A DNA stretch of 64,000 nt from Botryllus schlosseri (lineage: Eukaryota): NCBI GenBank assembly GCA_051294905.1, contig CM119378.1, positions 13,764,001 to 13,828,000 of the forward strand. The letters are read 5' to 3'. Within the stretch, counting starts at the first letter, position 1; each line of letters starts with the position of its first letter. Both the position numbers and the translations under genes were made by a program. The notes under the pieces were generated by a model. The model saw only the letters and a program-made list of their open reading frames with translations. It did no database searches and was not told the DNA's origin. This document shows positions 1,388 to 41,500 of the stretch, in pieces.

Positions 1388-1948
1388 TTACCCTGCGGGA
1401 TGTCATTTGTCCTGTGGGGTTCAGATCGCCAGGACAGGAACATTCGGCGCCAGCCATTTAGGCACCTATATGGACAATTAAACATAGCCTATATGCATTA
1501 ATTTGTATAATCGAAGTTTTCGGTCAGCAAAAGGCATTCCTTTTCGGCCAAGGTCCTCTCGCTGCTGATCGTTCTGGCACACTTCTCGGAGTCGCATGTT
1601 ACATGGCCTACAACAGTGGTTCTTAATCTTGCCTCCAGCGCCCCCCAGGGGGCGCTGGCGATTTTGAAGGGAGGCGGAAACGCTCAGGGGGCGATATGGG
1701 GGGCGCTGGGCTTAGGGGGGCGGTATGGGGGGCGCTGGAGAAAAATGGCTTCGCAGTAGATGATGTGGTAGTATGACATATCCTTAATGAGTATATTCAG
1801 AGCGAATTAACACCGAAAACTTAGATATTTATAGCCTACAAAAGACATATAGGTTTAATTGTCCATAGGCGCCTAAATGACTGGCACCGAATGTTCCTGT
1901 CTTGGCAATCTGAACCTCAGAAGACGAATTCCATCTGGCAGGGAAAAA
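1388..1948. repeat. Inverted repeat pair (~1388-1499 vs ~1843-1948)
   Basis: GGTTCAGATCGCCAGGACAGGAACATTCGGCGCCAGCCATTTAGGCACCTAT and its diverged reverse complement ATAGGCGCCTAAATGACTGGCACCGAATGTTCCTGTCTTGGCAATCTGAACC. Confidence 0.75.
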
Positions 1949-4900
1949 GGTACAAGTGTAGTAAAGGCCGTAAATAGTAACGGGGTATAATGGGAACACT
2001 GAGTATAGTTAGTGAAGTGTTGCACTATGTACATGTATATGTTGCACATAAATGGGAAATATGCGGGTTGATTGGGTAGTACGACCCATATGGAACATGT
2101 GAAAAAAAAGCCCTAGGATGTTAAAACGTAGATTTGCCGTATCCAGAAATTACGACTGGAGTGGGCGTTTGCGAGCAAGCTGTAAAATCCAAAAATATCT
2201 CATTTTGTGCAGAAGCATACCGACAACATTATGCGCTCGGTAAAAAAGGGAAATATCATACAAATGCATGTATCCAATCTTGAATTTTACTGGCGTTGTT
2301 TTGGGTAAGGTTTGGCGGCGGGAGATATATATAGCGCGCCATGAATTAGATTTTAAAAATCGGACAGACCAAGACGACGATTAAACAATGAGGGAGGTTA
2401 TTCATGCAATAGGCGCCAATCACAACAGAACTGGACTAAAGTGACACGTCTGGAACTGACGGTCAGATATAGCCCTTACGAGAATGTGGTTTTCACATAT
2501 AGCAATGTAAATTTAAAATGGCGACATGTTTTAATAGGTTTAAGTAGTTCGTTTCAGGAAATCTACACCCGTGGAAATTGTTAGTGACGCAACGGCGGGC
2601 TTCGGCAAAAGTAATACCAACCACTCCGGTTTTCTCCCCGACCGAGTCAATATCATTTCAAGTGAATTTATCATTAAATCTCCGAATGCAACATCGGTGA
2701 CGGGTAAGCAAGATAATTTCCATCATGCTACCACACTGGTGTATTTATCAGTCGAATGGCGACGAACGGAGTAGGGCGACTCGATGCAGGAGCTGACTAC
2801 GACCACCCCTGTATCACGCGAATTTTGCACCACGAAATATACGTCAATTGACCTCAGCTTTACCGTTATCGCTAAAGAAAACCAGCTACCTGACAAGCAT
2901 CTCGAAAGTATCACAAATGAAGGGGAACACATACATACATCGTAAGAAACCTTTCATCGGTGGTGAGCAATTGGGAGTAGTTTCAAAATGTTACCCAAGC
3001 TGCCATAATTGTTGTATTAATAATGATAATGTGGGTGGTGTCTCGTTAACGCAATAAACGCATTAGCGCGGAATGATTGAAAGGCATAATAGCGATTACT
3101 AGTGACGTATATGGACATTGGACATCTTAGGTCATTACTCGGAAAACGACTAGCATGAAAAGAACAACAACCCGATAGTATGATTGCTTCGAAAATGTGT
3201 TCTCGGAAACGTATTGCTGGAATAGAGCCCGTGTTTCTGTAATCCGTCTGTGTGCATGGACTTTAAATTGAACTTATGACCATATGTCTAGTTTTATAGG
3301 TAGATATCAGGCTTGATTAGACTGGCCCGGCTCAAACGATCAAGGTTTTGGTCCGGCCCGCGACGCTAAATCGAGTTTGACATTCCCGTCTATGGTTGAC
3401 CGTATACGATAGATCAGAATTAAAGGCGATAGTTACTATCGTCATTTGCGTCCGGTATAAAGCACTCCGTAATGACAAAAGTGATACAACATCGCGCAAT
3501 GAGGCTGTACGTACACGTGTGGTAATATTGAATGTTAAAATGCAAAAGTATTGGCGCACAAGCACATACTGGGTATTCAGTCAGTAAATTGCCTCTACGC
3601 GTGAGATCTGTAATTTCTCTAAATTCGGTTTTAACTTCCGGACGCCCGTTTACCAATAAATAAAGGCTCTTAACTTGAATTGACCATTGTGACGCGAGTC
3701 CACTTTACCTCGGCATTTTCATTCATCGGCCTGGTTAAACTATTTGTAAAAGTGTCGCACTCGTTTCTGCGGTCATGGGCTAAATTGATACATGAATGCT
3801 TGCTTGCTTGCTATAAATTGGTTGTGAGGATAATTCCCTTGGTCCACTAGTTCTTTTTGGACGCATGGCGAGACTCAATATCACCTCGGTTAAAGTTTAA
3901 ATCGTACAAGGCATATGGTGCCAGCCATCCGGCCTGGGTAACGATCCTGCATGGTCGGGGCAGTACTTGTTCTGCCCAACATATTTCGATCAAAATGTAA
4001 ATTTTTAATTAATGATTTCCTCCATAGAAATCACCACACGGAGTGTGTAAAACATTATAATTTAATACGTCATACCGTAGTCGTGGAACGTGATACTGCG
4101 ATTTTGCTCGGATTGTCGTTGTTGGTAAGTTTGTAACGCCACCATCGTATTCTAGAAAATGGGGCAAAAACTGATATAGTTCGCAGGTTTCGTGCAGTAG
4201 ACCGGAGTAATACTTATACTGCTATGCGCCAAGTCTGTGTAGTACGGGCAATAAATCTGTGACGGCAATCGTGTCTTAACAAAGTACTGCAAAATCGAGT
4301 TTGCAGCTAATGTTCTGCCTTATGTCATTCTTATCGCGTGCGCGGCGAAAACGCTCCATCACCAAAAATGGGAAACCCATGTTGTAATATTCTTTTTGTG
4401 TGTGCGGTTTTTGGGAGGGTCATAAGTGGAAGGCAGGCGCTCACGGCATGCCGTGAGAGTAGAAACATTCCGGTACTACTACAACGTGCAATTTCTGGAA
4501 AGGAAACACCACTGGCCATCCGGATATTAATCCCTTATGTAGGAATGTAGGAGTTTTTGTGACAGTTTCCTGGGGCGCTGGGCACGGTAATTGACTTCGC
4601 AAAATAGCAGAACGATTATCTTGTCATCCACCAAACCCTTTTAACGATGACGCAATTCCTTACTCTGAAGGCATATAAGCATTTGTACGTTAACTTCTTC
4701 ATCAGTATGTACTTAGGTTGGAGTTAGATAACAACCTAATCGTCTATCTTTGTAGTTATACTCAGATGAAAGCTTGGAGAAACTGAGGTTGACTTATTCA
4801 TATTTACATATGTGTATGACTGTATGTTCCTGTACTCGTCTTTATGTACGAATGTATACCATTGGTATTATGCGTATTGTCCTATCATTACAAGTAGACG

Positions 4901-7900
4901 TAGAATAAGGACTTGGAATGGATCAGTCTGGTCTACATATAGCCTACATAGCTACACGACCGAGATAACTATGGGTTGAAAACTACTTACCTGTTGGAAA
5001 ATTATTTTGTTTTGCGTATATATATGAGCAAAGATTTGAGGTCAGCTACATCAAATAAAAACATAGAGTGATCAGAATCGCTTCAATATCTAAGTGAGTA
5101 TCGTAACTCGAGCAAGGAATCCTGTATCAGATGTATGGGCACTAGGCAGTCTGCACTATTGTGAAATTATCGATTGAACTCACAAGGCTATTCTTACATC
5201 TACGCTTTTGGCTTTCGGAATCAACAAGGTGCGTGTGCAACTGTGCATTAGAGTCGTACACGCGATGAAGTATTTTGTATACGTCTTAATTAATGGTGAT
5301 AACAGTAAGTGCTATGTTTCCTTCATATAATTGGGGAAGCGGTCTTGCGAGTATAATAGTGTTGGGTGGCCTAATTGTTCTGTAATTTAGGACTTTATCA
5401 TAGTGTGCTATCGCCATTCACCTTGACCAGAGTTTCTATGTGAGCCTGTTATAGGATTTGGAACCGTCCCACTATAGTATTTGAATTTAACAAATATACA
5501 ATTTGAGCATTTCATTGCGCATTATTATTGGAATAAGCTTTAAATTGGTAAACTAACTCGCAAATGGGTCGGCAGTTCATCGTATTGGGTTAATTTGTCT
5601 GCAAAATCTATTGACCTTGAGTCATGGCTTCTATTTTGGAAATTTATGTTGATTTGACTAAGAAATTGACTTGAGTCACCTCTCTAAAGAGGAGTAAACT
5701 GATTTGGCTTGAAACAAGGGTATAGATTGAATGTCGTAACACGGGCAACGAACAAGATTTGAACTTAACTGTGGAAACAGTGACTAAATTGTAACTTCAA
5801 TTGTTACGTCATAAATTCATACACGGGCATTACTTTCAATTTTTCTTGGGACGCTCAGAATGGCGTCATGGCCGGGTTTAGATCAAGACTTTGAAATATT
5901 TTGGCGAAATCAAGGTTCTCGGTTGCAAGCAAGTCGCTTCAACAAGCCTAAATTTCAGAATTGGGAAATATGTGTATATCAAGGTCTTTAATCCGATTTC
6001 TATCCAAGTAACGATGTGGCTATTAAAACTAGATCGTATAATTAAGGAAGGTGGCATCATGTGGCGTGTACTTAGAAATCCAAATGTAATAACGGTATAA
6101 TGAATAATGGTGCATACGCATGTTTTGTTTTGCAGCTAATTTAAGGCCTCGGTTTGAATTTGATTTGACGCATATTGAGAGCATCCCTATACTCCCTAAA
6201 CCAGGGGTGGCCAACTTTTCTCTATGTATGGCCATATTCTGTTTATTAATATAGCCTACTGCCGTATTCCAGTGTTCGGTTGTGAAGTAACTGGACGCCC
6301 GATATCCCATGTTAAAAGATCCGTGCCCGATGAAGTAAGGACTAATGTGTTTGTTCGTATCGGCTTGGGCGCGCCGAGAGAAGTCATGTCACGAGTAAAT
6401 ACTGCGATTTATCGAATCCATATATGAATTTCGTCATTGATATTTGTAGTTGCAGATATTGCTATATAGTATTTGTCCTTTCCCGACCCCTATGGTGTGA
6501 TTCATCATTATTATCAATGAGCGTAAGTCTTCGAAAATTGGTGCCTAATATTAATGATGATGTATCTTTGGGTGGGACAATTGTTATTGATTTAAAAAAA
6601 AAACGGTAGATTTTACGCTAAATAAATGCACAATTTTTGCATTCATCAACATTAAGAGTTTAATTTTGACAAAATTTTGCATTCAAGTATTAAAATTAGG
6701 CATTGTTCACATAAGGTTGGTCTCTGCATTTTGGGTTGGAACTAGCTGTCCTTACGAAATACCTTGGCAACAATAGCGACTAAACGTTCCACAGTAGCAG
6801 TTGTGTTCTAGCAGCAATGAGGGTCAGTGTATACTGTGGATGCGCTGATAACACACCCGTTGCTTGATACCAACAATGTTGTCTACATCGTATTTTAAAG
6901 ACCGCAACCTAATAACACTTTTGCTGAGATGTCGCGAAACACCGATCTGTTAAGAATCACTTTACTATGAGAAACAATGTCCGTCAAGCCGTCAAATTTC
7001 AGATTCAGAATTACGCTATGGGCGTAAGTTTGGGAAAACATAAGACCCTAAAATAGGCTCCAGGGTGTGGTCTAAAAAAGCGAGAGGATAGGGTCACAGC
7101 CGCTGCAATCTCTACGTAAGAAACGAAATGTTGTTTGCAAAGCAAATTTGAATTACGTACAGAATTTTGACAATTTTTTTAACCAACGATATAATTTTTG
7201 AATTTCTCATGTATATCAAAAAATGGTCGCCCTAATATTGGTCATTTCGTTACATGCGTTGGTTTCTTGGCCTCCTATCGGGATTGGGAAAAATGTTGGA
7301 CTCGCCTAGGTGTGCCGTAAACGACACTCTTTCGTGAGACGTACCCAATTCCCAAGTTGGTATTTTTTATGGATCACCTGATTTTCTTCTGCGGCTCGCA
7401 TTTGTGCTGCGGGGATCAGATTACACGACACTGCGGAGTTGGAATCGTAAAATCAATTCGCATCAAATCGTGCGTGACACGATGGGAATAGCGCTAAATC
7501 TCGCCAAAGCTGATTCTGTATCCGCTGCATAAACAATGCTTCAGATATATGCTAGGGCTTAACTCAATTTAGCAGCTTTGCGCATATGTGATTATTGACA
7601 TTACCGATTTTCCAACATTTAAATCTGTGCTCGTTCGCTGTTGAGGATAACCATAGGTACCCGGTCTATATACTGATCAGCTAATATAGTGCAACGAATC
7701 ATTGTGGTTGATAACTCTTTTGTAGACCCGACTCGGCATGCTCAGAACCACCTACTAATTTGGCTAGCACAAGAGATGTCATGACTCAAGATCTATTGTC
7801 GCACAAAGATGGTGACATATTTTTGAAACCAATGTGATTCCCTATTATTAGAAATACTCGCCAGCTTGTAACACTATTATGGTGTTCCCTCACTTTGCGT

Positions 7901-9164
7901 AAGCGCTGCTGTATTAGCGCAGGTTAGAAGAAAATAATTGGTCAGTAAAAGTGCTAATACTATTTATTCTTGATTGAACTAGCAAATTGGAGATCATACG
8001 AAAACACCCCATAATACTGAATACACCCCGTAGCCAGGGTGGACAATAAACCTATATGTTGGTATATGCCTTACTTTTCGTGTTTAAATTCTGTTAATGA
8101 TCCCTATTTGTGGCAACGCGATATGGCGTTAGTTACCAGAAACGACGCCGAACTACCCTGCCTAAAGGTTTGAATTTATGTGACACTTCCCCTATTTGAG
8201 ACGAAATATTTTCTGTGTCAACACCCGTATGAATTAACCTTTCATATCTATAAATGTGATTTATGGCGCACATATGATATTATTGATTGGCTAATAATGG
8301 GTTATATACTACTCTAATTGTGTACAGTTGGTATCGGGCATTTTGTCATCATGGTACTGGTAGTTATTAGCCTATGTTTAGTGCGACTGCGCACTAACCT
8401 ATTTGCTTGTAGATATCCTATTATTATACTGGATTGGGTGTAATCATAATGCCCTTTATAACCCCCACTCCTAAAGGGAGGCAGCGCACTGTGATTAACA
8501 GACGCTGCGCCTCGTCGCCATTTGAAAAATAAATTATTCTGTTTGAGGAAGAACCATGCTCACATTCTCTACTGCCACGACACTAGGGAATAGCATGGCT
8601 TCATGGCATCCTCCGCTAATTAAAAGAAGGGGAGGGGGTGACTTCGTTGTACATATTTTGTGGTATCCGTCAGAAAATGAAAAGGATAAAAAATGAATAA
8701 AAAAAATTTTGATGCTTGTATGTAGAACATTAACATTTTAAAGAAGTGCAAAAGATTAAAAAGTAACCGAAAATGCGAAAAATATATATATATACATCCC
8801 TACAAAAAGAGCCGCGTTCGGCCAGAAAAAAATGTTTTTATTTTTATTTTATCAGACAATTATTGATGCGAGCCAAGCGAATCATTTATATCCCCTTTTT
8901 GAATCCCCTAGTGCAGAGTTTTGCATACGCGTCAACTCGAGGAATAAAACTGGCCTAAACGTGGATATCACCTTGAAGGTGAATGCTTGGTAGATTGCCG
9001 TGATTAAGCTGAAATTCATTTTGTAGATTATTATAGTTATATATGTTTATTTCCGTAAATTTGTATCATGTATCGTAATTGAAAAAAATGATGCTAGTTT
9101 TAAGTGCAAACCTGAAGCTAGCTAACCCTAAAAATAACTACTTGTATATTATTAATTGAAAATT

Positions 9165-9276
9165 ATAATGCAAATACCCTTAGTACTGCAAATGCACTAC
9201 TTAATGCATAGCAATGGTGTATAATGCAAATACCCTTAGTACTGCAAATGCACTACTTAATGCATAGCAATGGTGT
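9165..9276. repeat. Perfect 2 x 56-bp tandem duplication
   Basis: ATAATGCAAATACCCTTAGTACTGCAAATGCACTACTTAATGCATAGCAATGGTGT at 9165 and 9221. Confidence 0.95.
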
Positions 9277-12200
9277 AATATATGTACCGTACACGGAATG
9301 CTTGGAATTCGCTTGTTTTTTGATATATCAGTGTACTAACAACAATGAAATACTGATGATATAAGTCAATTATGTAGTTATGTATACATTAATTAGATCG
9401 ACACGGTCTCTTTAGGATTCCGGTAAGGTCGACATTCCCCCCTAAAAGCTAAGAAAATAGCACCATTATAGCTACTAGAGTATGGAGAAGGCTATAGTAA
9501 CTGAAAAGAATAGCGGTGGTCTATATGAATCACCTAGCTACCCATATGAAGCTGCTAATACGGAATAAGCCATCGCGGAAGCGACAGATATGTAATCACC
9601 CTGTCTTGTTTGTATTGATTATTATAATTATAAATCTGTAACCTTACGCATAAAGACAATGCGAAGAAAGTAATGCTGAATAATACTTGGTCAAGAATAA
9701 TATCACTAGTAGTGCGCCATATTTGGCACGATAGCTGTGTTCATTGAGCTAAGACGGTGGCATTCTTGACACTGGAGTCGAACCTATATGCGTAATTGCA
9801 GAGTTTGGGCTATATCCTCCCGCCCCTATGTAAGAGTGGATGGACCCTGAAATCGAAAATCAAATATAAAAGTATATAAGTATTATGCCTAGCAGGGAAT
9901 GGCTTGCCTGGTCATAATATATAAAAAAAACTTAAATACCATCAAAATTTAATGATTGGAAAAGAGTGGGCAGTTTCGGATGGTTGATTGGAATGAGCTC
10001 GCCATAACTTGTGGTATATTTGCTTGGCTGGATAATTTCATTGGCGTCTTTATATAGTGCGGCGTAGCCATTCAATCACCAGTACGGAACTGAAACTATG
10101 GTTTGCGATGTAATTGTGTCGAAAATAGAGTGATGCTTATATGGAATTGTCGTATGCATGCCAGTTTTACGATCGTGCTGCTATTAAATGGGGCCACCAT
10201 TTTTCGTGCATGCGAACTTTTGCAGTAAGTGTTGCCGTTATTTTATATTAGTGTATGCATTTTATATCTATGTGTCATGTGGTGCCCACACGAATTGTAT
10301 ATCAGCTGTGGTGAACAGTTGTTACCCATGTAGGTAGCATGAATGCCAAATTCAACCACCACCACCACCACCGAAGCAGAACATCTAAAGAAGTGTCCAG
10401 ACATCCACAAAACATTGACCAAGGCATTGAAAGAGTCTGACGTCATTTGGGCTCGAAAGGTGATGTTCGGATGTCCCCCTAAAGGCTCTCAAGCATACAT
10501 TGATAGGATCGCCTGCTTGCCACAGTTGTAAGGTGCACAGAAATGATGCAGCGCGATCAAATGCGCCGGTACAGCTCCATGAAACAGATGAATTAAAGAT
10601 GGACCGAACCAGAACAGTAACCGAGATATATTGCATTTGAAATCTCGCTACGACAGAGCCACGGACGAAATCCCGTATCCTGATGGAATTCCCTTGCCCC
10701 GAATAGACACGAAAGTATTTGAAGAAACGACTCAACAAGACATCAATGCCTCAATTGAAAATGGATATCTACATCTGAAAAGACTGCAATACTTTTATGA
10801 CTGAACTGGTGATCTGCCAATTGGTTGGCTTGGACTCTGAGTGTTGATACTTTTGTGGGCATCTAATGGCATATCACTTGTATATTATATACGATTGTAT
10901 GGCAGGAAAGGCCATCACATCTATTGTGAAAACAAACCTTGGAGAATTATTTTGAATTTCGATTGTGCATGATGATAAATAGGCTAACATTTGGTTTTAT
11001 ATCAGTATGTACAATGTGCATAGAGATGCCCTATTGTTATCTGCGTGATCTTATTGAAGTATTTGGTTGTTATAAGCTATATTTTAATTATATATTGATT
11101 ATTATGAGCCTCTGGGCCTGGAAAGGTCATTGCTTACTTCGATCAAGCTGCAGCCAATACTTCAATCCGCGCCACCGATCACCAACAAGGCGCGTAAAGG
11201 GGGTGACGAAAGCGTAACGAACTGGGATGACGTTCAACACTGTGAAGCAAATTGAACGAAGTGTAGACTACCCGCAAAGCAATCGTTTTGGGGCTACACT
11301 ATAAAAAACTGGAGGTCCCAACCGTTTCTTCCGGTGTTAAACGTCATTTCCCGGCAGTTCCAGAGGACGGGGGAGAGTCTGGAGACGAATAATTGTCGAT
11401 CAGCACTCTCCTATCTGCAATTGCCAACCGGTACACAACCCCTAACGTTTCCTCGTCTCACCTATGGACTCATAGCGCCAGATTGAGAAGCTCACGGCAG
11501 AAGCCAACGGTATCACATCCGACATCTCGTACCAGGACCTTCTACTTGGACGATTAGCCGAATTTCCAATTTTCGGCAGTGTGAGCGCGAGCACTGAGCA
11601 TCTCAACTACGAAAACACACAGTATACGTTGGAGGCAGCGTCAGGACTGGACGCAGAATCCAGTAGTCCAAAGCAACACATCGCAACCAAGAATATATCA
11701 TTGAACAGAAAAAAAAAGCTCGCCCGAAACGCCACTGGTCAGACGAACGTATTCAAGAGGAGAGACTCAACCTATATCGCAATGAAAATAACCCCATCAA
11801 GGGGCAGTCAAGGGACACGTCAAATCGACGAAAGCCCTGGTACGAAGTGTAATTTCCTGGCCGATTCAGGACACATCAAAATTCTAAATACATCATCTCT
11901 ATTTTATGTACATCCCCTGATATCGCGTATGGCCCGACACCAGAGGTGGTAAAAGTGATCAGCATGAGCATTGAGCATTGGCAGTTAAGTAGAAGTATCT
12001 ATTTCCAGTATAGAATAAATGATTAAAAAAAAAAAGTAAATTTCATTGGCGGTTCCCTTTGTAGCAGTAAATCACAAGTGGTTGCTTTGGAAATTGCAAA
12101 ATGAATATTCGCAACTTCCCAAAATGTCACAAGACACTGCGAAAACAGCAACTTTCAAAAATGTATTTGGCCCCTATCTTACTGTGGCTATTTCAGCAAG

Positions 12201-12381
12201 TTCCTGCTATGACAGTTCCATTTATAAAACTAAAACAACCCGATTCCAAATCTTCTGTCTACTTCTGAGTAGCTAAAATGTGCATAGTAAAAGTAGAAGC
12301 AGTCTAAAAGGATGATCAAGAAGAGGGTAAAGGAAAAAATGCTGACACTATGTCACCCCTACCACCAGTGCATATTTATAA

Positions 12382-14298
12382 TGTGCAACCACCGGGGCTG
12401 CCTGCCTGCCGGCTGGCAGGCCTCCCCAATCTTCGCTAGCAACCGGACGTCAGCGATACCCAGCACCAAATCGTAATCCGCCGCCGCGGCGAAATCCTGC
12501 CCGAACAGCTGAAACAAATCGTTTTCCTAATGACGTGATGGCCGGTGAAAACCCCTATCGGAGGAGCGCTGCACCCGGGGGGCAGACGGGATCGCGGGTC
12601 TCAGGAAGGTCGGGAAGACAAGCCCGACGCTAGAAGAAACAACAACCCGCATTCGCGAAACTCTCAGAACGTGCGAACGGCTCCGGGAATGCCAGCGTCA
12701 GACCAGAGGGGACGCGGCCTTTCGCAGACTCACGACTCGGGTGTCGGGGTAGACCATTCGCAGTTGACGCCGTCCAGCAGTCAAGAGGCGAGCCAGATTT
12801 CGAACACCCAAGACACAAAAACAGCTGCCTACCCACAAAGCTGGACTGAAAGACAGCCTCTCGAAATGAAATTGCGCGGCATAGGAGGATCATCCTGTGT
12901 CAACTTTGTCGTCGTCATCAAGCTGGACGACCTACCAGTACCGTTCGCAACTGGTGAAGGAGTCCCGTTAAACATAATAGGACTGAAATGGATTGAGCAA
13001 GTTCAACAGCTACCCTCAGTAGCAACAGAGTTAAAGGACCCCACTACAGTAAATTATGAACTATCATTGTCCGTGTATTCGGACGCGGCAAAAACCATAG
13101 CTGGAAGCAGTACTTGCAACGCTGCTACTGGTGATGGGTCGGTGGAAGCTGCAACGTTACACAGCGTCGAGACTGGAAGCCCAGCTGACGCCCCACGGGA
13201 CCAAAGATGTCCCTGCCTCTCGGAAGGATTTTGCGCCAAGTGTGGAGAAACCACAGATACAAAATTAAGTCGGGTGAGCGCTGTGACCCCGAAATCCTTG
13301 CGTGCTGAGCGCGGAAGCCCCGCTAGCACCTCTCAGGAACATTATGTTAAAGAGATTCCTGAAGACAACGGCCACTGCATTCGCCACGATAGAAGAGTGG
13401 GAATCGTTTACGACGGCCCCATGGCCGCAGCAGTTGTGCCGCATACCGAGAAGATTACATTGAAAGCAGCTGTCGACATCCACACTGAAGTGACAAATTT
13501 CGTGGATAAAGAAGAGTCTGGAGGCGATATGCAAGCCTCTCCAGAAAAAGGGCCCCCGTCGGGCGTTGAAACCGCCGGCGTGAAGTTGGATGCGGGCACG
13601 CAGCCCCTTCAGAGGCAGAAAAAATCGAGTGTGGAAGCCCCACTGAATACAGTTACCCTCGCCCTCTCTCCACCGACATCAAAACCGCGCCACGGCCTCT
13701 ATAGACATGGTCGCGGCCCGATAAAAGCGTATGAACTGTATGATGGAACTGATAAGAAAGTGAAGACAGAGTTGGAACGGTTATGCAACCGGGTAGTTGA
13801 ACTTGCTAATCTTCGTACAAACCTCCCGAATGCGTGCCACAACTATGCTTGCAGCAACTCCTAAAGGACAGGTTGGGCCAGGATATTCCGACTACAACCC
13901 TAAAAGAGATCATGCGGGGCTGTACCAGAGCGGCAGTCTCGGATGAGGGGTTGGCGGCCGCACATGTCCATATCGTGGGGGAACCCCCTCATTATGAACA
14001 GTAATTAAATTATGACAAGTTGTATCACATGACTACGCGGACCCGAGCCATACAAATAATGAAGAGCGAACTCATGCGGATAGGCCGGAGGTACGTACAC
14101 CTCAGCTTACACAAGCCACGCTACGAGCACATGCGGGGAACAGCTTTGGAAATGGACTCATGCGATCTCCGAAAACTGGGATTAACTCTATTGCAATCGC
14201 CCAATTCGGACGTGTTTTTTTGTGAAGGCCCTATCCCTAACTCACATATACGACTCGTGCACGGGATCGTGAATCGAACACGATCGAACAGCGCATAA
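12382..14298 (+). pseudogene. Disrupted intronless ORF: long low-complexity N-terminus plus C-terminal Tpt1/KptA-like (RNA 2'-phosphotransferase / ADP-ribosyltransferase) domain
   Basis: The 439-aa ORF 12545-13864 continues after a frameshift (~13810-13860) and one TAA (14002-14004) into LYHMT...GRRYVHLS...LLQSPNSDVFFCEGPIPNSHI. These match the Tpt1/KptA motifs LYHGT, R-x-(H/Y)-V-H-L-S and S-x-N-x-V-(F/W)-L...P-x-x-Y-I in order and spacing. A Pro/Arg-rich open frame from 12382 suggests a further upstream frameshift. Confidence 0.72.
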
Positions 14299-14854
14299 AG
14301 TCATGGGCAAAAAGTAATTAAATTGAAAAATAAAATTGAAAAATATTTTTTAAAAAAATATATTTTTTTCTTGTTTAAATCTGCTTTAAATGTTCAAAAA
14401 TAATACCGCAAAGGGTGGTTGTTTAATGCATATGTTTCCATATGGAATACATGAAATATAAGACCTTAAATGTATACGTAATTTCGATGTTCATGGGGAA
14501 ACACTTGAGATTGGATAAAAATTTATGTGAAACACTAAAATGATAGTGATTCACATGTACGAGTAAAGGACGGCGGCTTGTGCATGAGTTCCGGGAAAAA
14601 TAATATGCCAGTGAAGAAATACCAATTTGAAATCGTGTGCGTCTTTTAGTTTAGTACGATTGGACGACAGGGATAGAACTAGATATCCCCGTTGGGCGAT
14701 ATCCCCAGGTATCCGTTGGGCGATTCTATATTTTTTGATATAGCAGACAGGAGGTCACGAAATGACATCATGCTACGAAGTCATATCAACGGGTCCACCC
14801 GCCCGGCTATGTTTAATTATTACTTACGGGCCCTACAGTTTCCAAGACAGCTCA

Positions 14855-22014: not shown

Positions 22015-22653
22015 TCAACCGCTATTCACAAAATTGCTAAGCAATATGGCAAACACAGCGACGCCGGCGAGGACCGCAAGGTTTAAAAAACCCGGCTGCG
22101 TTTCAGCCGTGCGGCTCGGTTCCAAAGGGTCTTCGACATCGTTCGATGTGCTATTTTCGATCCTTTCCACGAGATCGGGGAATAAGTTGCGAAAATTAGA
22201 GTCACGTAAATTAAACTGTCCGCTTCGTCTCGCTAATTTTCTCTTCATGAGGTCCGACGTTTCGATTGAACCCAGTGTCGGAGTCGTTTCCACCATGAAA
22301 CTTAAGAGTCCAGTTAAGATAGTGCCCACTGACCAAGCCGGATTCCAAGTGTCTGGGTGAAAGTCGCTGATCGATAGACAGAGCCTTGTGTTGCACTTGA
22401 AACGGCCCGACGGCGTCATCATGTAGATTGACGGTGGCTTGAAAGGGAATTCGGTAGGAAAGACAAGCTTGCCGTGGTACAGCCCGCCGTCATATGGGGT
22501 ATCGCTTGGCCCGACTACCACGTAGTGCCACTCGAGGATATTCGAAGACAACGGTTCCGCTACTATGAACGGCACAGGGTCCCTTTTCAGTCTCATGTAA
22601 TCCTGCTTCAGGCGCTGCGTAGCTGTCCTTGGAGCAATACGTTTTTTATCCAT
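22015..22653 (-). CDS. UBE2J2: ER-anchored ubiquitin-conjugating enzyme E2 J2 (Ubc6), single coding exon, 212 aa
   Basis: ATQRLKQDY..DPVP...EPLSSNILEWHYV...YHGKLVFP.EFPFKPPSIYM.TPSGRFKCNTRLCLSISDFHPDTWNPAWSV is the Ubc6/J2 signature with the catalytic Cys in LCLS. Hydrophobic C-terminal tail anchor. Confidence 0.96.
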   Translation of the reverse strand: MDKKRIAPRTATQRLKQDYMRLKRDPVPFIVAEPLSSNILEWHYVVVGPSDTPYDGGLYHGKLVFPTEFPFKPPSIYMMTPSGRFKCNTRLCLSISDFHPDTWNPAWSVGTILTGLLSFMVETTPTLGSIETSDLMKRKLARRSGQFNLRDSNFRNLFPDLVERIENSTSNDVEDPLEPSRTAETQPGFLNLAVLAGVAVFAILLSNFVNSG

Positions 22654-24032
22654 TTTCAGAATAGTATGTTTTTCTGTATCAGGTCAAAGTATCGATCACA
22701 CGTTAGTTATTCAGAATCACAATATTACATTAAAGCGCGGATTTAATGAAGGTCTGGAACTCACGAATTTTGAAACGCAACTCGATCCACCAACACCGAC
22801 CTATACTAGCTCTGGACGTTATATTGGGGTTTGTAAAATACTTGATACAGATTACACATTACAATGAACAAATTTGCTAACTAAATTTTACGCGACTAGA
22901 ATATAAACAGAATGATCGGTTTTCAAGACGCCATTTGACTGGCCGTGACTCTGATACCAATATTAAACACATTATTTTAACTAAAAAGTGGCGCGTATGG
23001 AGTCACAATGTACAAGTCGAAAATGGGAGGGGACGACGCCCCAGCTATGACAACCTACGGCTAACAGCAACAAAAATAATTCCGATGCGATTATTTGGAT
23101 TACAACGACTGGAAGTTGATACTGAAGTATACAAGTATTCCGGAGAGGTCATATGTCGCATGACGTTGAAAAGGGTATTCATCAAACTCGGACTGACGTG
23201 TATTTAATGTAGATTTACGAAACTGACTAATCAATCATTCTCGCAATTTTTTTACATCTGGCTATTTTGCTCTAGTTACTGAAATTTTACTTCCGTTGAA
23301 AATTTTTCAAAGAAAGAAAGAAAAATATTCAACCAACTCCACATTGTCACACAATGAGTGACACCACTGCCCAAACAGAACAAGTAAGTTAAAGTATAGA
23401 TTAATGGAAAACAATAAACCTATATGACAATGAATGACAAGAACTATAACACTATACAGCACTGAACACTATAACCCACGTAGGTTAGTGAATAGGCTAC
23501 CATAAATAAAGTCTAACGTGCGGACTCGGATTCTCTATTCATGATCCGCATCTTATACGATTGTGTCAACCATGTCCGACGATACAAACATCCAAGCATA
23601 ACAGAATTAAGTTAATATAAAGAATGAAGTCATAGTATATCAATTACCTAGTTCGGACGGCAACAGACATCTTTGGCTAGCCTGCACACTGCACAGTGCA
23701 CATTTCACTATCGAATGTGACGGTCAAAATCGAAAACCTGACTTCCAATCCTACTAAAGATTGGCTACATCTTCATCAGCGCGTTCTTACTCGTCTCACA
23801 GCAGGTAAAGGTATACTGTACTATCACTGGTTCACTGCGGTGAGTAACGCATGCAATAGCTTATTTATTATTGCGTAATCCATGCCCTTACGCCAAATCG
23901 CTAAGTTGTATTGTATTCTGCACAGCTCAGTGGGTTGAGCAAATATTGCTGACGCTTTAGCATTTTGAGTTGATAGCATTCACGGCGAGTCGAACCTGCT
24001 TGTTGCATACATGTGATCTTGTTGACTGAATT
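22654..24032. promoter_or_regulatory. Divergent (head-to-head) intergenic region between UBE2J2 and SORD; probable bidirectional promoter and 5' UTR exons
   Basis: Gene orientation, plus strong plus-strand splice signals at 23384 (GTAAGT), 23801 (AG), 23840 (GTGAGT) and 23925 (AG). No TSS evidence. Confidence 0.45.
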
Positions 24033-26511: not shown

Positions 26512-29500
26512 CTGCAACAAGGCAAAAAACAAATTACATTACGTCGTCGCAATATATTTGAACCAATGTCGCAATGCAGCGACCATCAACACCATCTACT
26601 ATGGTCGTCTACACCAGGCCGATATTGCCTATTTTTGATTCCGTAGCTGCCAACTTCTAGTACGGCCCACTTCCATCCAGGCTGTTTTAAGACGCCGCTT
26701 ACGTGGATGAGATGGTGACGAGGAGCCTAGAACCCGCTACCCATTGGTGTTGCAGCTGCGCATCATACCACTACGCTATCTAGCCACATGCATTAAATCG
26801 ATGGTGGCTGCTTACGAAATGACAAGATGCATCATCGCGACTGACTCAAGATGATGGCACTTATACCCAGATACAATCTCCAAAAATATATTCAACAGAT
26901 ACCTACATGGCTGTTTCACACGGTACTCATGACAATATTACGCTTAAAAGTTGAACAAACTTAGTAAAGCAGTTCTGGCTAAAAATGTTCAACTAAAAGT
27001 GGAAGTAGACTGAAACTACTCGCGTATGCCTGCTTGGAAAAATGTAAGTATGTCATTGCTGACCATGACCACCTCCAGGGAAAAATGGTATCTCAATTTC
27101 TCAACATTGTATGATAGCAACTGCAAAAGCAAACTTACGTGTTCAGGTGAGTGCAAAGATATTTAAACGTGACGTAGTTGGGACTAGGTAACTTCCTTAC
27201 TACTCCGCGCACAGCCAAATTTCGCATCGAATCGGGCATTTCTGTAAAGGTAAAAAGACGACGATGGGAACATTTCGTTAAAACTCAAGGCTGGTACAAA
27301 ACTCAAATAGAGTTGAAAAAATTCTTGATCGACCGATATTACGACAAAATAATGGTAAATACGGCTGGGTCACTGGTTAATTCCTACGCAGGACAGAGGC
27401 CGGAATGTTTCCAACTATAGCAAGGATCTGGGAAGATCGTGATTACACATGTATCTACGACAGGGGTGGGCAACCTGCGGCCGCATGCGATCTTAGAAGG
27501 AAATTGGTGCGGCCGTTGACACGCAATTCAATTAGTATGCGCTGGTGGCCGTCGACATGCAAATTGAATTTACGAATCGACTCCCAAATTTTTGTGAGAT
27601 CTTAATTAATCTCGATAATTTCTTTGCGCAATTCAATGCGACTGCATTTGTCAATTTTAATATAGCAGCGACCCTTGCAATTCGAGTCGCACAGTACAGA
27701 TGCGCCCCACAGAGAAATACCATCTTGGAATCGTATGCTCCTCACGAAAGAAATTAGCTTCTGGTAAGTTTCAGAGATTCCAATATATTTCTACTATACC
27801 GACAATCCTGATGGGAGTTCAAGAAATTACAGCATGCAACTAAGTGACTAATAACAATTGGCCCACCCGAAGATGCATCGCCATTTATAACGAGCTCTAA
27901 ATGTTCGAAAACACTACCTTCATCAACTCTTCCGGTGAATCTGATCATATGGGCTGAGAATCGATAAATGTTTGATAGTCATATGTGAAACTACTAGCAT
28001 AAATGACGAAATGCAATCGTGAATCTGAAAAATTTTACAGCTTCGCGCGAACATAAATAGTCCCGGTAGCTGTTCATAACATAGCCACTCGCGATTTCGG
28101 TGCAGATAGTGAGTTGATATCAATAAATAGTTAAGTTTGGAAATGGACATATTAACGTGGTTGTTAGGCGTCCAGTTAGTTCATTACGACCATGCCGTGG
28201 AATGCGGACTTGAATAGCACAAAGGTAGGCCACCCCTGATCTATGAGATAATCCCAGTTTTTGCCTGATAGTAATTCCATGGAAAGACATTAAAAAAGAA
28301 CAAGTGACATGAATGGAGTACATTCAAGCAGTCACTGAGATCCATGTCCGCATTCAGAGTGAATACGGAGTCTGCAGCATGTACAGTACAGTCATACACA
28401 CAAATGGATTATGCCAGTGACACATTTGATCACGTTGCGGAAAGACCAAGACCGCTAAATTCAAGCACAATAAAATGAGAATAGGGAACGCCATTCAATA
28501 CAGCAGCGTTTACACAGCAGTCATTCATCACTTCCTTCTGTCTCAATCCATACACACACTAACTGTGCATTCACAATTTCATGGCCATTGTGAAAATGGT
28601 ACTGTGTAATAGCTCAAAAGGAAATGGCTTCTACTAAACCACTCTTGAACCATCATAATTATCGCCGTTAGTACTAGTACATAAATACGGCTGCACGCAG
28701 CAGTGGCGCAAAATTCCTCTACAAGCGGCATTGACAGAGCTAACACCAAACGAAACATGACATAAGCAAACAGCAGACACATACTTATGGCTTCTTCTAA
28801 CTCTTCGTGAAGATGTGAAGGTATGAGCGGTTCGGGGAGATTTTTATGACTGAAAAACCAAGTCAAACATCCGGCAATGGTCTGCACAGTGACTGATAAA
28901 CTCGACAAGTCCACGCTATGGTCTGAACGGAAGAAATAGCTTCGTAAACGATAATATATCACTTTTTGTGAACACACAGATAATTTACCTTCATCAAACC
29001 TATTCAAGACATTCTCCCGTTCTTTCGCGTTTGCAGGTATTCGGTACAACCCTTCGTTCGATATACCTGAAACAGAAGTAACAATGTTAATCGGTGGAGA
29101 TAGGCGAGTCACGAGTCAGCGGTTATGTGGCTACACCTTTAGTAGTTCAAATAATATCAAGCGATTACATTGATCAAATTTTGGACAGCAATAAATTCAA
29201 TACGACTAACTATACGAATACGGCACAGGTACTTTCAATACAATCTCTGACGTTCGACAAAATTAGGTGTTGGAATCAAAGCTGGTTAGGCTGTGAGGCA
29301 TAACTACTCATGCCAATACGTAGATATATGGTCTGTTTATTCGACGTAACGAGCTTGATTCTAGCTAAATACGGTTCTGTTCTAGTTTGCGTAATAATAG
29401 TGCATACTAGCACAGTAATCGTGCATAAATTCATTTCTTCATTATATAAACAAGTCATTCTTCCTCGTCACGTCACAAAAACCCTACTTGAAAGTAGGAA

Positions 29501-38500: not shown

Positions 38501-41500
38501 CAATTACTCCCTTGCATGTCTCAATTACATTACAATTACTGTCAAACATGTAATTGATCCGGTAGAGAGGTGTTCTTTGTCAACCGTAGCGACGTAATTA
38601 GCAACAATCACACGTAATTCATCTTTCCTTCATGATACGTATAAAACCATTTAATTTAAAAAAAAAACGTTTTCGAACTATTCCTAATCATGATGAGTGC
38701 AGAAAAATACACACACAGAAAAAAGTTACTGAGTTACTAAGTCTTTTGTTGCTACTGAAGTATGGGAAACAGTTTAGCGTGACTGAATTATCTAGTTAAC
38801 GAGGCATACATAGAACACCAATGTGAATAGGCTTAATTATTTTATGTTGTGATTGTCAGTTTCAACAACAATGCACGGTAACTGAAATTATAATTAGGCA
38901 AAATTTTTATCAAATTACAATTGGAATTACACAAAATAGAAATGCTTTAATTGCAATTACGTGAAAAAGTGAAATTATTTTACTTTCAGGTCAATCACAA
39001 ATTACAATTGATCCAACTCTGGTGGAGAGAGGTAAAATTTGATGCAACACCCCATGAAAAAAGCCAAAAGTTGGTCCACGTGAAGAGAAAATACCACACC
39101 CCGCGACATATCACCATAAAGATTGGTGTATTTGACTCGATTTCACTCATCGGTGCGACCAAGGTGCAAATACGGCAAATGTATACGCCTATCATCCACC
39201 CACGAGTCTACTGCAAGCGTAGATTCTAAAACAGCGACCTATAGCGGATTCGTAAAAACGCGAAAAACGCATCTGCAAGCAAAGGAGATATAAAACGAGC
39301 GCTTACTCTTCGTTTCTCTTCATCCCTCCTCCTCTTCTCCTCGTCTTTGAGCCTCTGTTTCATCATCTTCTCCTCTTTCTGGGTAGTGTGAGACGGGCCG
39401 TAGCCCTTCTCCATGCCCGACAGCAGCACCTCGTGGCTCGTGCCTCTGCGCATGCTCTGCAAAGGGCCAGATCGGAAAATAGTCAACTTCAGCCAACATG
39501 GATCTTCAGCAATGTTCCCTCTAAACTGCGCACATGCGCGATTGCGCAGTGCTGGCACGGTCTCTGCGCACAGAAAATATAAGCTGCGCACGAGAAAGCC
39601 GAAGTGATGACCTTTTTTTAATCGTTACAGACTGTTGTCCAAAGGACCGCGCAGTGAGTTGATGAGTGCGCGCAGACACGTGAAAAATTAGAGGGAACAT
39701 TGGTCTTCAGTAAAAATTTCTTTCTCAAATTGAACTGGCTACTTCATAAAAGTGTAAGGCTACCTAATTAAAGGCTGCGCATTGGTGCAATTCCAACTCA
39801 TAAAACTTTTTTTCTTTTATAGCAACGCTTCTATAGGTTGGAATTGAGCCAGAATCGGTGGGCAACGCTTCAAAAACTTTGGGTTAGCCATGGATATCCC
39901 AACTTTTTCAGAAACTTTTCGCTCTCAATAACCAAATCTCGATCAAGCGCGAGTCAATTAACATCTTACATGACATGATATTTGTTGGCTTGGTAGCGAA
40001 ATGCAGGAGAATCCCGAGACACATAACATTTAATATACACTGCCACCCACCATATCCAATCTAATTACCGTGTTAGGCTCCGGGTCGCTCCTGGCGTCGA
40101 TGAGAGCGGCAGTCGAAAAACGGTTGGGTTTCCCAACGCTGTTTGTGGCGCCGTCCGCGTTATCGCCGTCGGCTCCTCTCTTCTTATTTGAGCTTTTGTA
40201 GGGCGTCGGTCTGCGCGTGAGGGCGCTGCTGCTTTGGGTGCCGCCTTTGTGGAAGAACTTCGATTTGGTGTGCGGCGACGAGGTAGAGTGGCTGAGAGTC
40301 AAGAATACGAAACATGAACGGACGGAATACTTTTCCGAAATTTTTAACCAATTCTCATGAAAATACGTATTAAAATTGGAGTATTTGGCTGTAATAAGTT
40401 GTTGGTCATAAACAACAATCTTCATTCAAGAAACATGAAAGGCGTGTATGTATTTCAGAGCATTCGGATAAAATTAGTGGCCACCAAGTGCCATTCAACA
40501 TTCACCGGTAAGCCTTACAAAAATAAATATCGCAATTGGAGTATTTGGTTGCATTAAGGTGTTAGTCATTATTCAAAAGTTCACGTCTATCTTCAATGAA
40601 AAACCCATAAAAGGACGTAATACCTTTCCGTGAGCCTTCGAGGAGTCTGACGGATATAAATATAGCAAGTGGGTTATTTGGCTGCGTTAGGATGTATATA
40701 GTAGTTATAAAAAAGGGCGAAAAAAATGCCATCCTACCTCAAGTGTGACGGAAATAAACATCGCAATTGGGGTATTTGGTTGCGTTAAGGTACCAGATGT
40801 CCCAGTAACAAACAAAAATCCGTCTACTTTATGAAACATATAACTGGTATTAACTGCAGACTTGCCAAATAATTCCTGAATTCCCGGGAACGTATTTTCG
40901 TTCACTCACCTCTCCTTCATATGATCCAATTTCTGAGTCGGCGTCTCCAAATTTGGAAACACTTTTTGGCCCGTCTTTTTCGGGTCGTAGGGGCCGACCA
41001 TGTAAGGAAAGTTAGCACCGTCGGACACCATCTCGCCCAAAGCCTTCTGTTGCGATTTTGATGGCTTGAATGCAAGAAGGAAGAGTTACCACTAGGATCG
41101 ACGGAGATGCCAGGTATACGAGACAGTGTCACAGCATCTATTGTTACACACAAAGCTGAGAAGTGGACTTTAATGCTGTTTCTGACAGTGATCAATCACA
41201 GTATTCAATTATATCACAACAAACGATAGGTATTAAGCATATCTCAATATCCACAGTGGCAGTTGTCATCAATTGATTAACAACTTCAAACACAACAATT
41301 ACGTGATTTAACAAAACGATCATAACCAGAGGCTGTTATTAGAAAAACACATCCCATTAAAACTTCATTTATATAGAATCAGCCGAGTAGGAAAGCAATA
41401 CTTTCAGTGCAACACGGTTATATTGAAGTCAGTAATATGAACCACAGATTTCACAGAATTTTCATCAATAAGTGAAGTCTCATGGTCGTCAATCGTCATG

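Follow-up and report, generated by a model that had tools for sequence, protein, structure and literature searches.

A Tpt1/KptA-like domain at the end of Pol in a family of giant retrovirus-like elements with Merlin-type termini from Botryllus schlosseri

Retroelements can be classed by the way in which they integrate: by LTRs and an integrase, by a tyrosine recombinase, by target-primed insertion, or, as in pararetroviruses, not at all. The Caulimoviridae have a protease (PR), reverse transcriptase (RT) and RNase H (RH) without an integrase, a single primer site and a circular DNA which is read as a terminally redundant RNA. DIRS and Ngaro elements contain neither LTR nor integrase and are thought to integrate circular cDNA via a tyrosine recombinase. 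Merlin transposons are defined in PMC8101967 by inverted repeats starting with GG and by target duplications of 8-9 bp. A combination of a transposon with a virus is represented by Teratorn, in which a piggyBac transposon supplies integration to a DNA herpesvirus; the fusions given in section 10 of a 2023 review on it (PMC10175614) include no cut-and-paste transposon fused with a reverse-transcribing element. Tpt1, finally, removes internal 2'-phosphates from RNA according to PMC6097658 and PMC6333775, the latter of which treats the job of the enzyme outside fungal and plant tRNA splicing as an open question.

A first-pass annotation of the window (the whole analysed stretch of 64,000 nt) had placed a free-standing, transposon-borne Tpt1/KptA-like gene at 12382-14298. 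What was flagged is in fact the disrupted end of Pol from a giant retrovirus-like element, of which the window contains a defective copy.

The defective copy in the window

Positions 1949-14592 represent a 12.6-kb defective copy of a family of 25-60 kb elements, flanked by the target duplication GGGAAAAA, and the copy belongs to a subfamily of defective copies of about 13 kb. The transposase and env genes, RT and RNase H are absent from it, gag is largely missing, the protease has lost its motif and Tpt1 its Arg-His motif. The following features, with identities to full copies C8a and C2f where given, were assigned:

1941-1948, plus strand: left 8-bp target-site duplication GGGAAAAA, the same as 14593-14600
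1949-1971, plus strand: left imperfect terminal inverted repeat with GG start, a start common to at most 22 genome matches
1949-2274, plus strand: left end of the element, 84% to C8a, after which the transposase, env1 and env2 of full copies are missing
2274-6408, plus strand: 4.1-kb stretch common to the other defective copies of the subfamily, 94-99% to these sister copies
6408-11133, plus strand: central non-coding region retained in defective copies, 74-92% to C8a/C2f
11053-11076, plus strand: spliced-leader exon of chordates in copy, here with 4 mismatches in 26 nt, exact in most lineages
11310-11327, plus strand: decayed, tRNA-Gln-like primer-binding site; perfect 18-nt Ile/Thr sites lie at the same place in other lineages
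12311-12812, plus strand: gag fragment with two frameshifts, stopping exactly at the conserved splice donor, 62-84% (tblastn) to C8a Gag 588-791
12812-12813, plus strand: exact splice junction, the 800-nt GTGAGA...TTACAG of full copy C2f being gone
12813-13829, plus strand: protease region and variable spacer including a Cys cluster (13208-13243), 89% to C8a Pol 100-431
13829-13852, plus strand: deletion junction of microhomology type with a short duplication; RT, RNase H and Tpt1 Arg-His motif removed
13837-14298, plus strand: Tpt1/KptA remnant (Pol C-terminus) with a stop at 14002-14004, 76% to C8a Pol 1019-1171
14570-14592, plus strand: right imperfect terminal inverted repeat with CC end
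14593-14600, plus strand: right 8-bp target-site duplication GGGAAAAA, the same as 1941-1948

No remnants of transposase, env1 or env2 were found in the window copy by tblastn, and 2274-6408 gave no match to open reading frames of the family. The deletion of RT and RNase H corresponds to C8a Pol residues ~432-1018, and the catalytic motif of the protease was lost through a second small deletion. On its own such a copy is incapable of the cycle; its movement would have depended on functions supplied in trans.

The motifs on which the first-pass annotation was based are present, with LYHMT starting at 14020 and RRYVHLS and the tail SPNSDVFFCEGPIP following in frame, and their pattern occurs a single time in the six frames of the window. 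Their identification with Tpt1/KptA holds in so far as the match in profile and fold is real; what they mark is, however, the end of Pol and no stand-alone gene. With 18.7 bits (E 0.002) the 97-aa C-terminal lobe in the window stays below the 26-bit cut-off of PF01885, which five open-frame Pols of the family exceed (27.3-41.5 bits), and against the PDB it yielded weak KptA matches (E 0.4). The segment is indeed GC-rich (53% in 12382-14298 against 42% in the whole window) and inactivated, by the stop at 14002-14004 and by frame changes near 12400, 12620 and 13830-13850. The upstream ~450 aa, in contrast, had been wrongly counted as a Pro/Arg-rich N-terminal part of a Tpt1 gene: they consist of a gag fragment (12311-12811) and of the protease and spacer of Pol, of which the Tpt1 domain forms the C-terminus. 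The CPCxxxxxCxxC cluster does exist at 13208, but it lies inside the variable spacer and is missing from the C1a lineage; being lineage-specific, it was ruled out as a conserved zinc finger. The impression of degenerate catalytic motifs likewise did not last, as the RH motif is deleted in the window copy and H-x-R-H is present in open-frame copies. To eight of ten element lineages the lobe in the window shows 44-82% identity, to the two most distant ones 32% and 43%. A search of the 496-Mb genome of the animal itself gave 113 matches, many of which end open frames of 1,100-1,300 aa.

The element family and its Tpt1 domain

In full copies, an inverted repeat is followed by a transposase gene (tnpA), two membrane-protein genes, cargo, gag, pol and the second inverted repeat, the gene order having been read in 13 regions. 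Two lineages are permuted, with the transposase-env-env block located after pol and not at the left end. The cargo is variable and comprises an LRR protein, an IAP with three BIR domains and a RING, a ubiquitin E2 and sometimes a second transposase. Delimited copies range from 24.7 to 59.6 kb. They end in imperfect inverted repeats of ~23 bp (GG...CC), and 26 of 27 end pairs (15/15, 4/5, 3/3 and 4/4, the last for permuted copies, whose left ends were located by searching for the duplication) are flanked by exact 8-bp target duplications. No long direct repeat of the LTR kind was found between the ends of seven elements. The proposed association of the domain with a mobile, virus-like element is borne out; it sits inside a duplication-bounded element with gag, pol and env-like genes.

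The product of tnpA belongs to DDE_Tnp_IS1595 (PF12762, E 3e-12 to 4e-19) and shows D, D and E in all 16 rows aligned. Gag carries a CCHC knuckle, and its core resembles retrotransposon capsids (Atlas features). Judged by eye, env1 encodes a signal peptide, a basic cleavage-like site, long helices and a C-terminal hydrophobic segment; an Atlas lead to class I fusogens (0.90-0.91) goes along with a poor model (pLDDT 50) lacking any match at E<=0.001. Among 41 open reading frames scanned from element regions, a set which leaves out some small ones, there was no tyrosine recombinase, nor was a movement protein seen among those scanned. Defective copies without RT are numerous. In three other lineages they drop RT and retain the Tpt1 end, which may reflect only its closeness to the terminus.

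Pol has the order PR-RT-RNase H-Tpt1, with a DTGS protease motif before RT, in the five open-frame Pols scanned; none of the five matched an integrase family, the place of which is occupied by Tpt1. The same RT-RH-Tpt1 arrangement without integrase is found in the relatives P0001-3 and P0007, and Pols with this ending occur in other assemblies at 37-47% identity. The annotation of Styela clava includes a relative of Gag-protease. Taken together with the leader match described below, these relatives suggest a tunicate host. A search with a single Pol protein retrieved only distant RT proteins, most of them with an integrase domain; the isolated Tpt1 domain as query returned one fragment only, and no relatives emerged from IMG/VR when Pol or a caulimovirid-like protein served as query. 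In a midpoint-rooted RT-RH tree of 100 rows and 426 columns, for which thinning left 70 of 253 other RTs and which was built without retroviral, Bel/Pao and DIRS references, the family forms one clade with a support of 0.98, apart from the sampled gypsy-type RTs and from two caulimovirid-like rows. Its sister is P0075, which by eye has an integrase-like tail. The best PDB match of the element RT is the RT of CaMV. A basal relative (L170/P0008) has gag, pol and env without integrase, Tpt1 or transposase, so that the wider clade can do without Tpt1.

An AlphaFold model of the open-frame Tpt1 domain, based on 14 sequences, reached a pLDDT of 95. In Foldseek it matches archaeal KptA across both lobes (best hit 9ldc, E 2e-12, TM 0.81), and bacterial and mammalian Tpt1 were matched as well. 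Four residues, Arg16, His17, Arg64 and Arg119, are essential in Runella Tpt1 according to PMC6097658. In the open-frame copies the counterparts of the three Arg are invariant, and 13 of 14 rows have that of the His; the positions of Arg64 and Arg119 come from the 7kw8 alignment, those of the Arg-His pair from motif and profile position. The HGT motif has kept its His and Thr, which matter in yeast Tpt1 (PMC6333775), and has its Gly replaced in 14 of 14 rows. Replacements also affect the Lys of KxR and the Arg of IRA. For seven lineage pairs dN was 0.16-0.37, with dS being 1.4 or saturated, and evolution of the domain is five to ten times faster than that of RT. Across 22-62% identity, the His/Thr of the NAD site and the catalytic Arg are invariant or nearly so. 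Residue conservation and the model suggest that the Pol-borne Tpt1 is probably an active NAD+ enzyme.

Signs of reverse transcription, the proposed circle and a possible role of Tpt1

In every lineage checked, gag is preceded by a 24-nt motif with unrelated flanks. Base -1 of this motif is G in 17 of 24 young copies, which would be expected if RT adds a base opposite the cap. The motif is identical to the spliced-leader exon 'Chordata 1' in Table 1 of PMC3795323, and trans-splicing occurs in botryllids (PMC3691228, PMC4893630). Of the 236 exact leader copies in the genome, about 22 of the first 30 match the element family (blast), and in one copy the leader is joined exactly at the next AG. 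Linkage across the leader is the lowest of 44 cuts (r2 0.02-0.04, against 0.71 for close sites downstream) in 23 copies, three stretches without leader and one rearranged copy having been omitted from the 27 sampled. As r2 upstream of the leader is also low (0.14-0.18), this contrast is weakened and only one flank of the seam is sharp. From these observations we infer that the leader copy, in the window at 11053-11076, marks both the RNA 5' end and a seam of strand transfer.

About 250 nt past the leader, 31 of 55 copies match the 3' end of a host tRNA plus CCA perfectly over 18 nt, and one more does so with one mismatch. The tRNAs are tRNA-Ile(AAT), of which both isoforms occur, and tRNA-Thr(AGT). 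As they were looked up from the motifs of the elements, the test lies in whether they are real tRNA genes, and this was confirmed; control stretches showed at least six mismatches. In 23 of the 55 copies, including that of the window, no primer site exists within two mismatches of the three tRNA types tested. A first scan restricted to four tRNA types had given nothing meaningful. Self-priming by the leader was ruled out, there being no conserved complement.

The gag-pol join in the window corresponds to the exact loss of the 800-nt segment GTGAGA...TATTTTACAG of C2f. The join is common to six of eight defective copies, the other two being a microhomology variant and a copy without the segment; this loss of the gag-pol intron is one event by descent. 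The Gly codon GGT at the gag donor is the sole invariant one among 81 four-fold sites in nine lineages, including a marine metagenome contig, and codon comparison thus indicates that the donor is under selection. AG/GTRAG occurs twice in 25.7 kb, and the chance of such a donor and acceptor, given AG on both sides, is roughly 8e-5 per deletion. Against splicing counts a 2-nt AG microhomology at the join; moreover, conservation of the acceptor on the pol side does not extend to every lineage. Where other lineages have deletions, these are of microhomology type and were ruled out as splices. The splice joint did not appear in 61, 160 and 247 RNA reads from three raw runs of one lineage, partly lying on flank, a depth too low to reveal splicing. 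At the gag/pol overlap, the -1 slippery heptamer A-AAA-AAC is present in all 10 rows shown (13 regions scanned), and also in the marine contig L169.

In 10 of 10 rows, from about seven lineages, the conserved N-terminal motif of the transposase gene lies 17 nt behind a pyrimidine-rich CAG acceptor, always in phase 1 as is the gag donor, and eight of the 10 rows lack any ATG further upstream. A start of its own is present in the second transposase. An acceptor precedes the ATG of env1 in six of six rows, as seen by eye. By eye, too, no ATG with a donor is conserved at the left end from which the transposase could take its start. Where tnpA lies at the left end and the gag donor at the far end, the donor can reach tnpA only across joined ends. 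Likewise, an RNA started at the leader would include both ends only if these were joined on its template, and a circular template is suggested by the presence of just one leader and one primer site, both internal, next to two intact inverted repeats. It is therefore likely that the element is reverse-transcribed into an end-joined DNA circle and likely that this is inserted by the transposase at the inverted ends. Such a circle would read gag-pol-transposase-env-env, the retroviral order, which is linear in the permuted lineages.

The cycle might proceed as follows. An RNA begun by the trans-spliced leader would run through gag, pol, the joined ends, transposase, env, env and cargo back to the leader, where tRNA-primed reverse transcription would jump and so yield a circle with the inverted-repeat junction inside. 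A spliced Gag-transposase fusion would be packaged and would cut and insert the circle. The Tpt1 of Pol might cap 5'-phosphate ends arising from RNase H and circle synthesis with ADP-ribose, shielding them until integration.

Capping of 5'-phosphate RNA and DNA by Tpt1-type enzymes has reportedly been seen. As RNase H leaves 5'-phosphate ends and Tpt1 is fused right after it, ADP-ribose capping of such ends is our first choice among the roles considered and the most likely single job, although it is put forward tentatively. In the archaeal enzyme the replaced Lys of KxR presumably corresponds to K63, and a structure of the K63A mutant with ADP-ribosylated DNA is on record; this equivalence, counted along alignments, serves as a lead only.

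Ranked below capping, and unlikely, is a function within the same replication cycle in which Tpt1 would clear internal 2'-phosphates from primer tRNA or genomic RNA and so unblock RT. Animals are not known to leave a 2'-phosphate when they ligate tRNA halves, no source of 2'-phosphate RNA is known in this host, and the host has Tpt1 genes of its own. These points weigh against it; in its favour, the domain travels with RT and retains all four residues of the two-step reaction, as this is outlined in PMC6097658. More doubtful still is a non-catalytic nucleic-acid-binding module, or a counter-defence acting on host RNA or protein. The replaced Gly, Lys and Arg of HGT, KxR and IRA, the evolutionary rate relative to RT, and the IAP and E2 genes in the cargo would agree with it; the NAD-site His/Thr and catalytic arginines, held over so wide a range of identities, speak against it.

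Alternatives to the circle and known systems

It appears improbable that the element is simply a large Merlin DNA transposon which moves by cut-and-paste with a retrovirus-like cassette on board, its RT serving only to rewrite copies already in place through gene conversion by cDNA. In favour of this, the termini and target duplications have the Merlin form as defined in PMC8101967, RT-less defective copies abound, and no junction of right and left end was found in the assembly with the two patterns searched. Cut-and-paste leaves unexplained, however, a startless left-end transposase whose acceptor is in phase with a far-end donor, the free reassortment across the leader with two primer-site isoforms among close copies, and the permuted lineages. 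That the flagged gene is a processed TRPT1 pseudogene beside unrelated repeats is refuted: intronless Tpt1-like reading frames do exist on host C3, but the element domain is unlike them (23-33% over short stretches), and the lobe in the window, 82% identical to an element Pol tail against 28-32% to host proteins, sits within an element bounded by target duplications.

Returning to the reverse-transcribed circle, the whole assembly of features could represent an order-level new enveloped reverse-transcribing virus of invertebrate chordates, with a circle of up to 60 kb, leader-started RNA using the leader as strand-transfer point, a spliced Gag-fused Merlin transposase as integrase and an active end-capping Tpt1; in this full form the proposal is plausible but stops short of being probable. 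If true, insertion of a reverse-transcribed circle by a cut-and-paste transposase of DDE type would add a route of integration and bridge class I and class II elements, and a pararetrovirus-like cycle would be seen gaining or losing integration. For Tpt1, fusion to RNase H, at the site where 5'-phosphate ends arise, would provide a defined setting. The size of retroelements is stretched to about 60 kb. As three copies are more than 99% identical at both ends, junctions and spliced RNAs are directly searchable.

No description of the architecture, the life cycle or a Tpt1 in a retroelement was found in the open literature, a search to which Repbase, subscription papers and supplements did not belong. 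With Tpt1/KptA/TRPT1 (PF01885; PDB 9ldc, 6ede, 7kw8) its domain shares the two-lobe fold, Arg-His-Arg-Arg, H-x-T and R-x-x-H-L. It differs in its fusion after RNase H in Pol, in the replaced HGT Gly, KxR Lys and IRA Arg, and in an identity of 18-23%, the comparison with cellular Tpt1 being one of pairwise identity.

Merlin/IS1595 transposons share the DDE_Tnp_IS1595 transposase with D, D and E, the inverted repeats starting with GG and the 8-bp duplications. They are single-gene elements with a DNA-only cycle, whereas the element is 25-60 kb long, combines gag and pol with two env-like genes and cargo, has a transposase beginning with a splice acceptor, and bears marks of reverse transcription such as intron loss and a primer site. 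The Caulimoviridae resemble it in PR-RT-RH without integrase, in the single internal primer site and in the inferred circular DNA. Unlike them, the element has an animal host, envelope-like genes, an integration enzyme of its own and precise ends, it gave no movement protein match, and its RT stands apart from two caulimovirid-like proteins.

Common to the element, to Ty3/gypsy elements with env and to retroviruses are a CCHC Gag, PR-RT-RH, a -1 slippery site, an 18-nt tRNA primer site, spliced env-type acceptors and, on the circle, the order gag-pol-integrating enzyme-env. In contrast to these, it has no rve integrase and no LTRs, its primer site and leader are internal and its RT-RH forms a separate deep clade among the RTs sampled. 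From DIRS/Ngaro it is set apart by a DDE transposase with 8-bp duplications, and by protease and env-like genes. Teratorn, with virus genes fused to a cut-and-paste transposon, is the nearest concept, but here the partners are Merlin and a reverse-transcribing element. In the proposed cycle the element would copy itself as a pararetrovirus does and insert itself as Merlin does, and it departs from each family in a defining feature.

Candidate replication signals of the element

Four copies of the giant retrovirus-like element in the B. schlosseri genome (C14a, C16a, C2a and C4a) contain a conserved purine tract of 13-15 nt, which is located approximately 120 nt upstream of their right end. It is possible that this tract acts as the plus-strand primer. 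A conserved right-end purine tract was not seen in the lineage to which the window copy belongs. Among young copies, a second dip in the linkage between sites, with an r2 of 0.10 that is based on few sites, was observed at the tRNA primer site, approximately 240-260 nt past the internal spliced-leader exon copy.

Further features of the window and the host genome

Within the defective copy, a 4.1-kb segment (window 2274-6408) is common to the defective element subfamily. Two additional open reading frames of the window were annotated:

22015-22683, minus strand: intronless ubiquitin-conjugating enzyme ORF with a hydrophobic C-terminus (UQ_con, E 7e-20), outside the element
28579-29115, minus strand: ORF that matches RhoGAP (E 5e-7)

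Also outside the element, three spliced-leader-like copies with 1-3 mismatches and a weaker fourth one are part of a 51-nt repeat family (window 40350-40791), and one further such copy was found at 56816.

Intronless host Tpt1-like ORFs (at most 180 bits) form a tandem cluster on C3 (G000:C3:19.31-19.43 Mb; L143, L144, L146), which adjoins ORFs that were read by eye as BTB/BACK-like. An additional host TRPT1, which contains introns, is located at G000:C14:5157418 (L145).

Arrangement of copies and relatives

At three loci (G000:C16:20.63 Mb, C8:10.27 Mb and C3:31.16 Mb), copies from different lineages are adjacent or nested in opposite orientations. A divergent lineage (G000:C3:28.66-28.71 Mb; L149-L153) exhibits the order pol, 235-aa ORF, one env-like gene, cargo and gag, with gag also being present as an inverted duplicate. 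Its 235-aa ORF bears a second Tpt1-like motif, as judged by eye, and no transposase was seen in this lineage. In the related protein P0002, an exonuclease/endonuclease/phosphatase domain lies C-terminal to the Tpt1 domain.

The metagenome contig L170 (1846-10967) includes gag, pol and env, and its reverse transcriptase belongs to the same clade as that of the element family; integrase, Tpt1, transposase and LTR are all absent from this region. Upstream of its gag lies a TGG motif, which we take to resemble an initiator-Met primer site.
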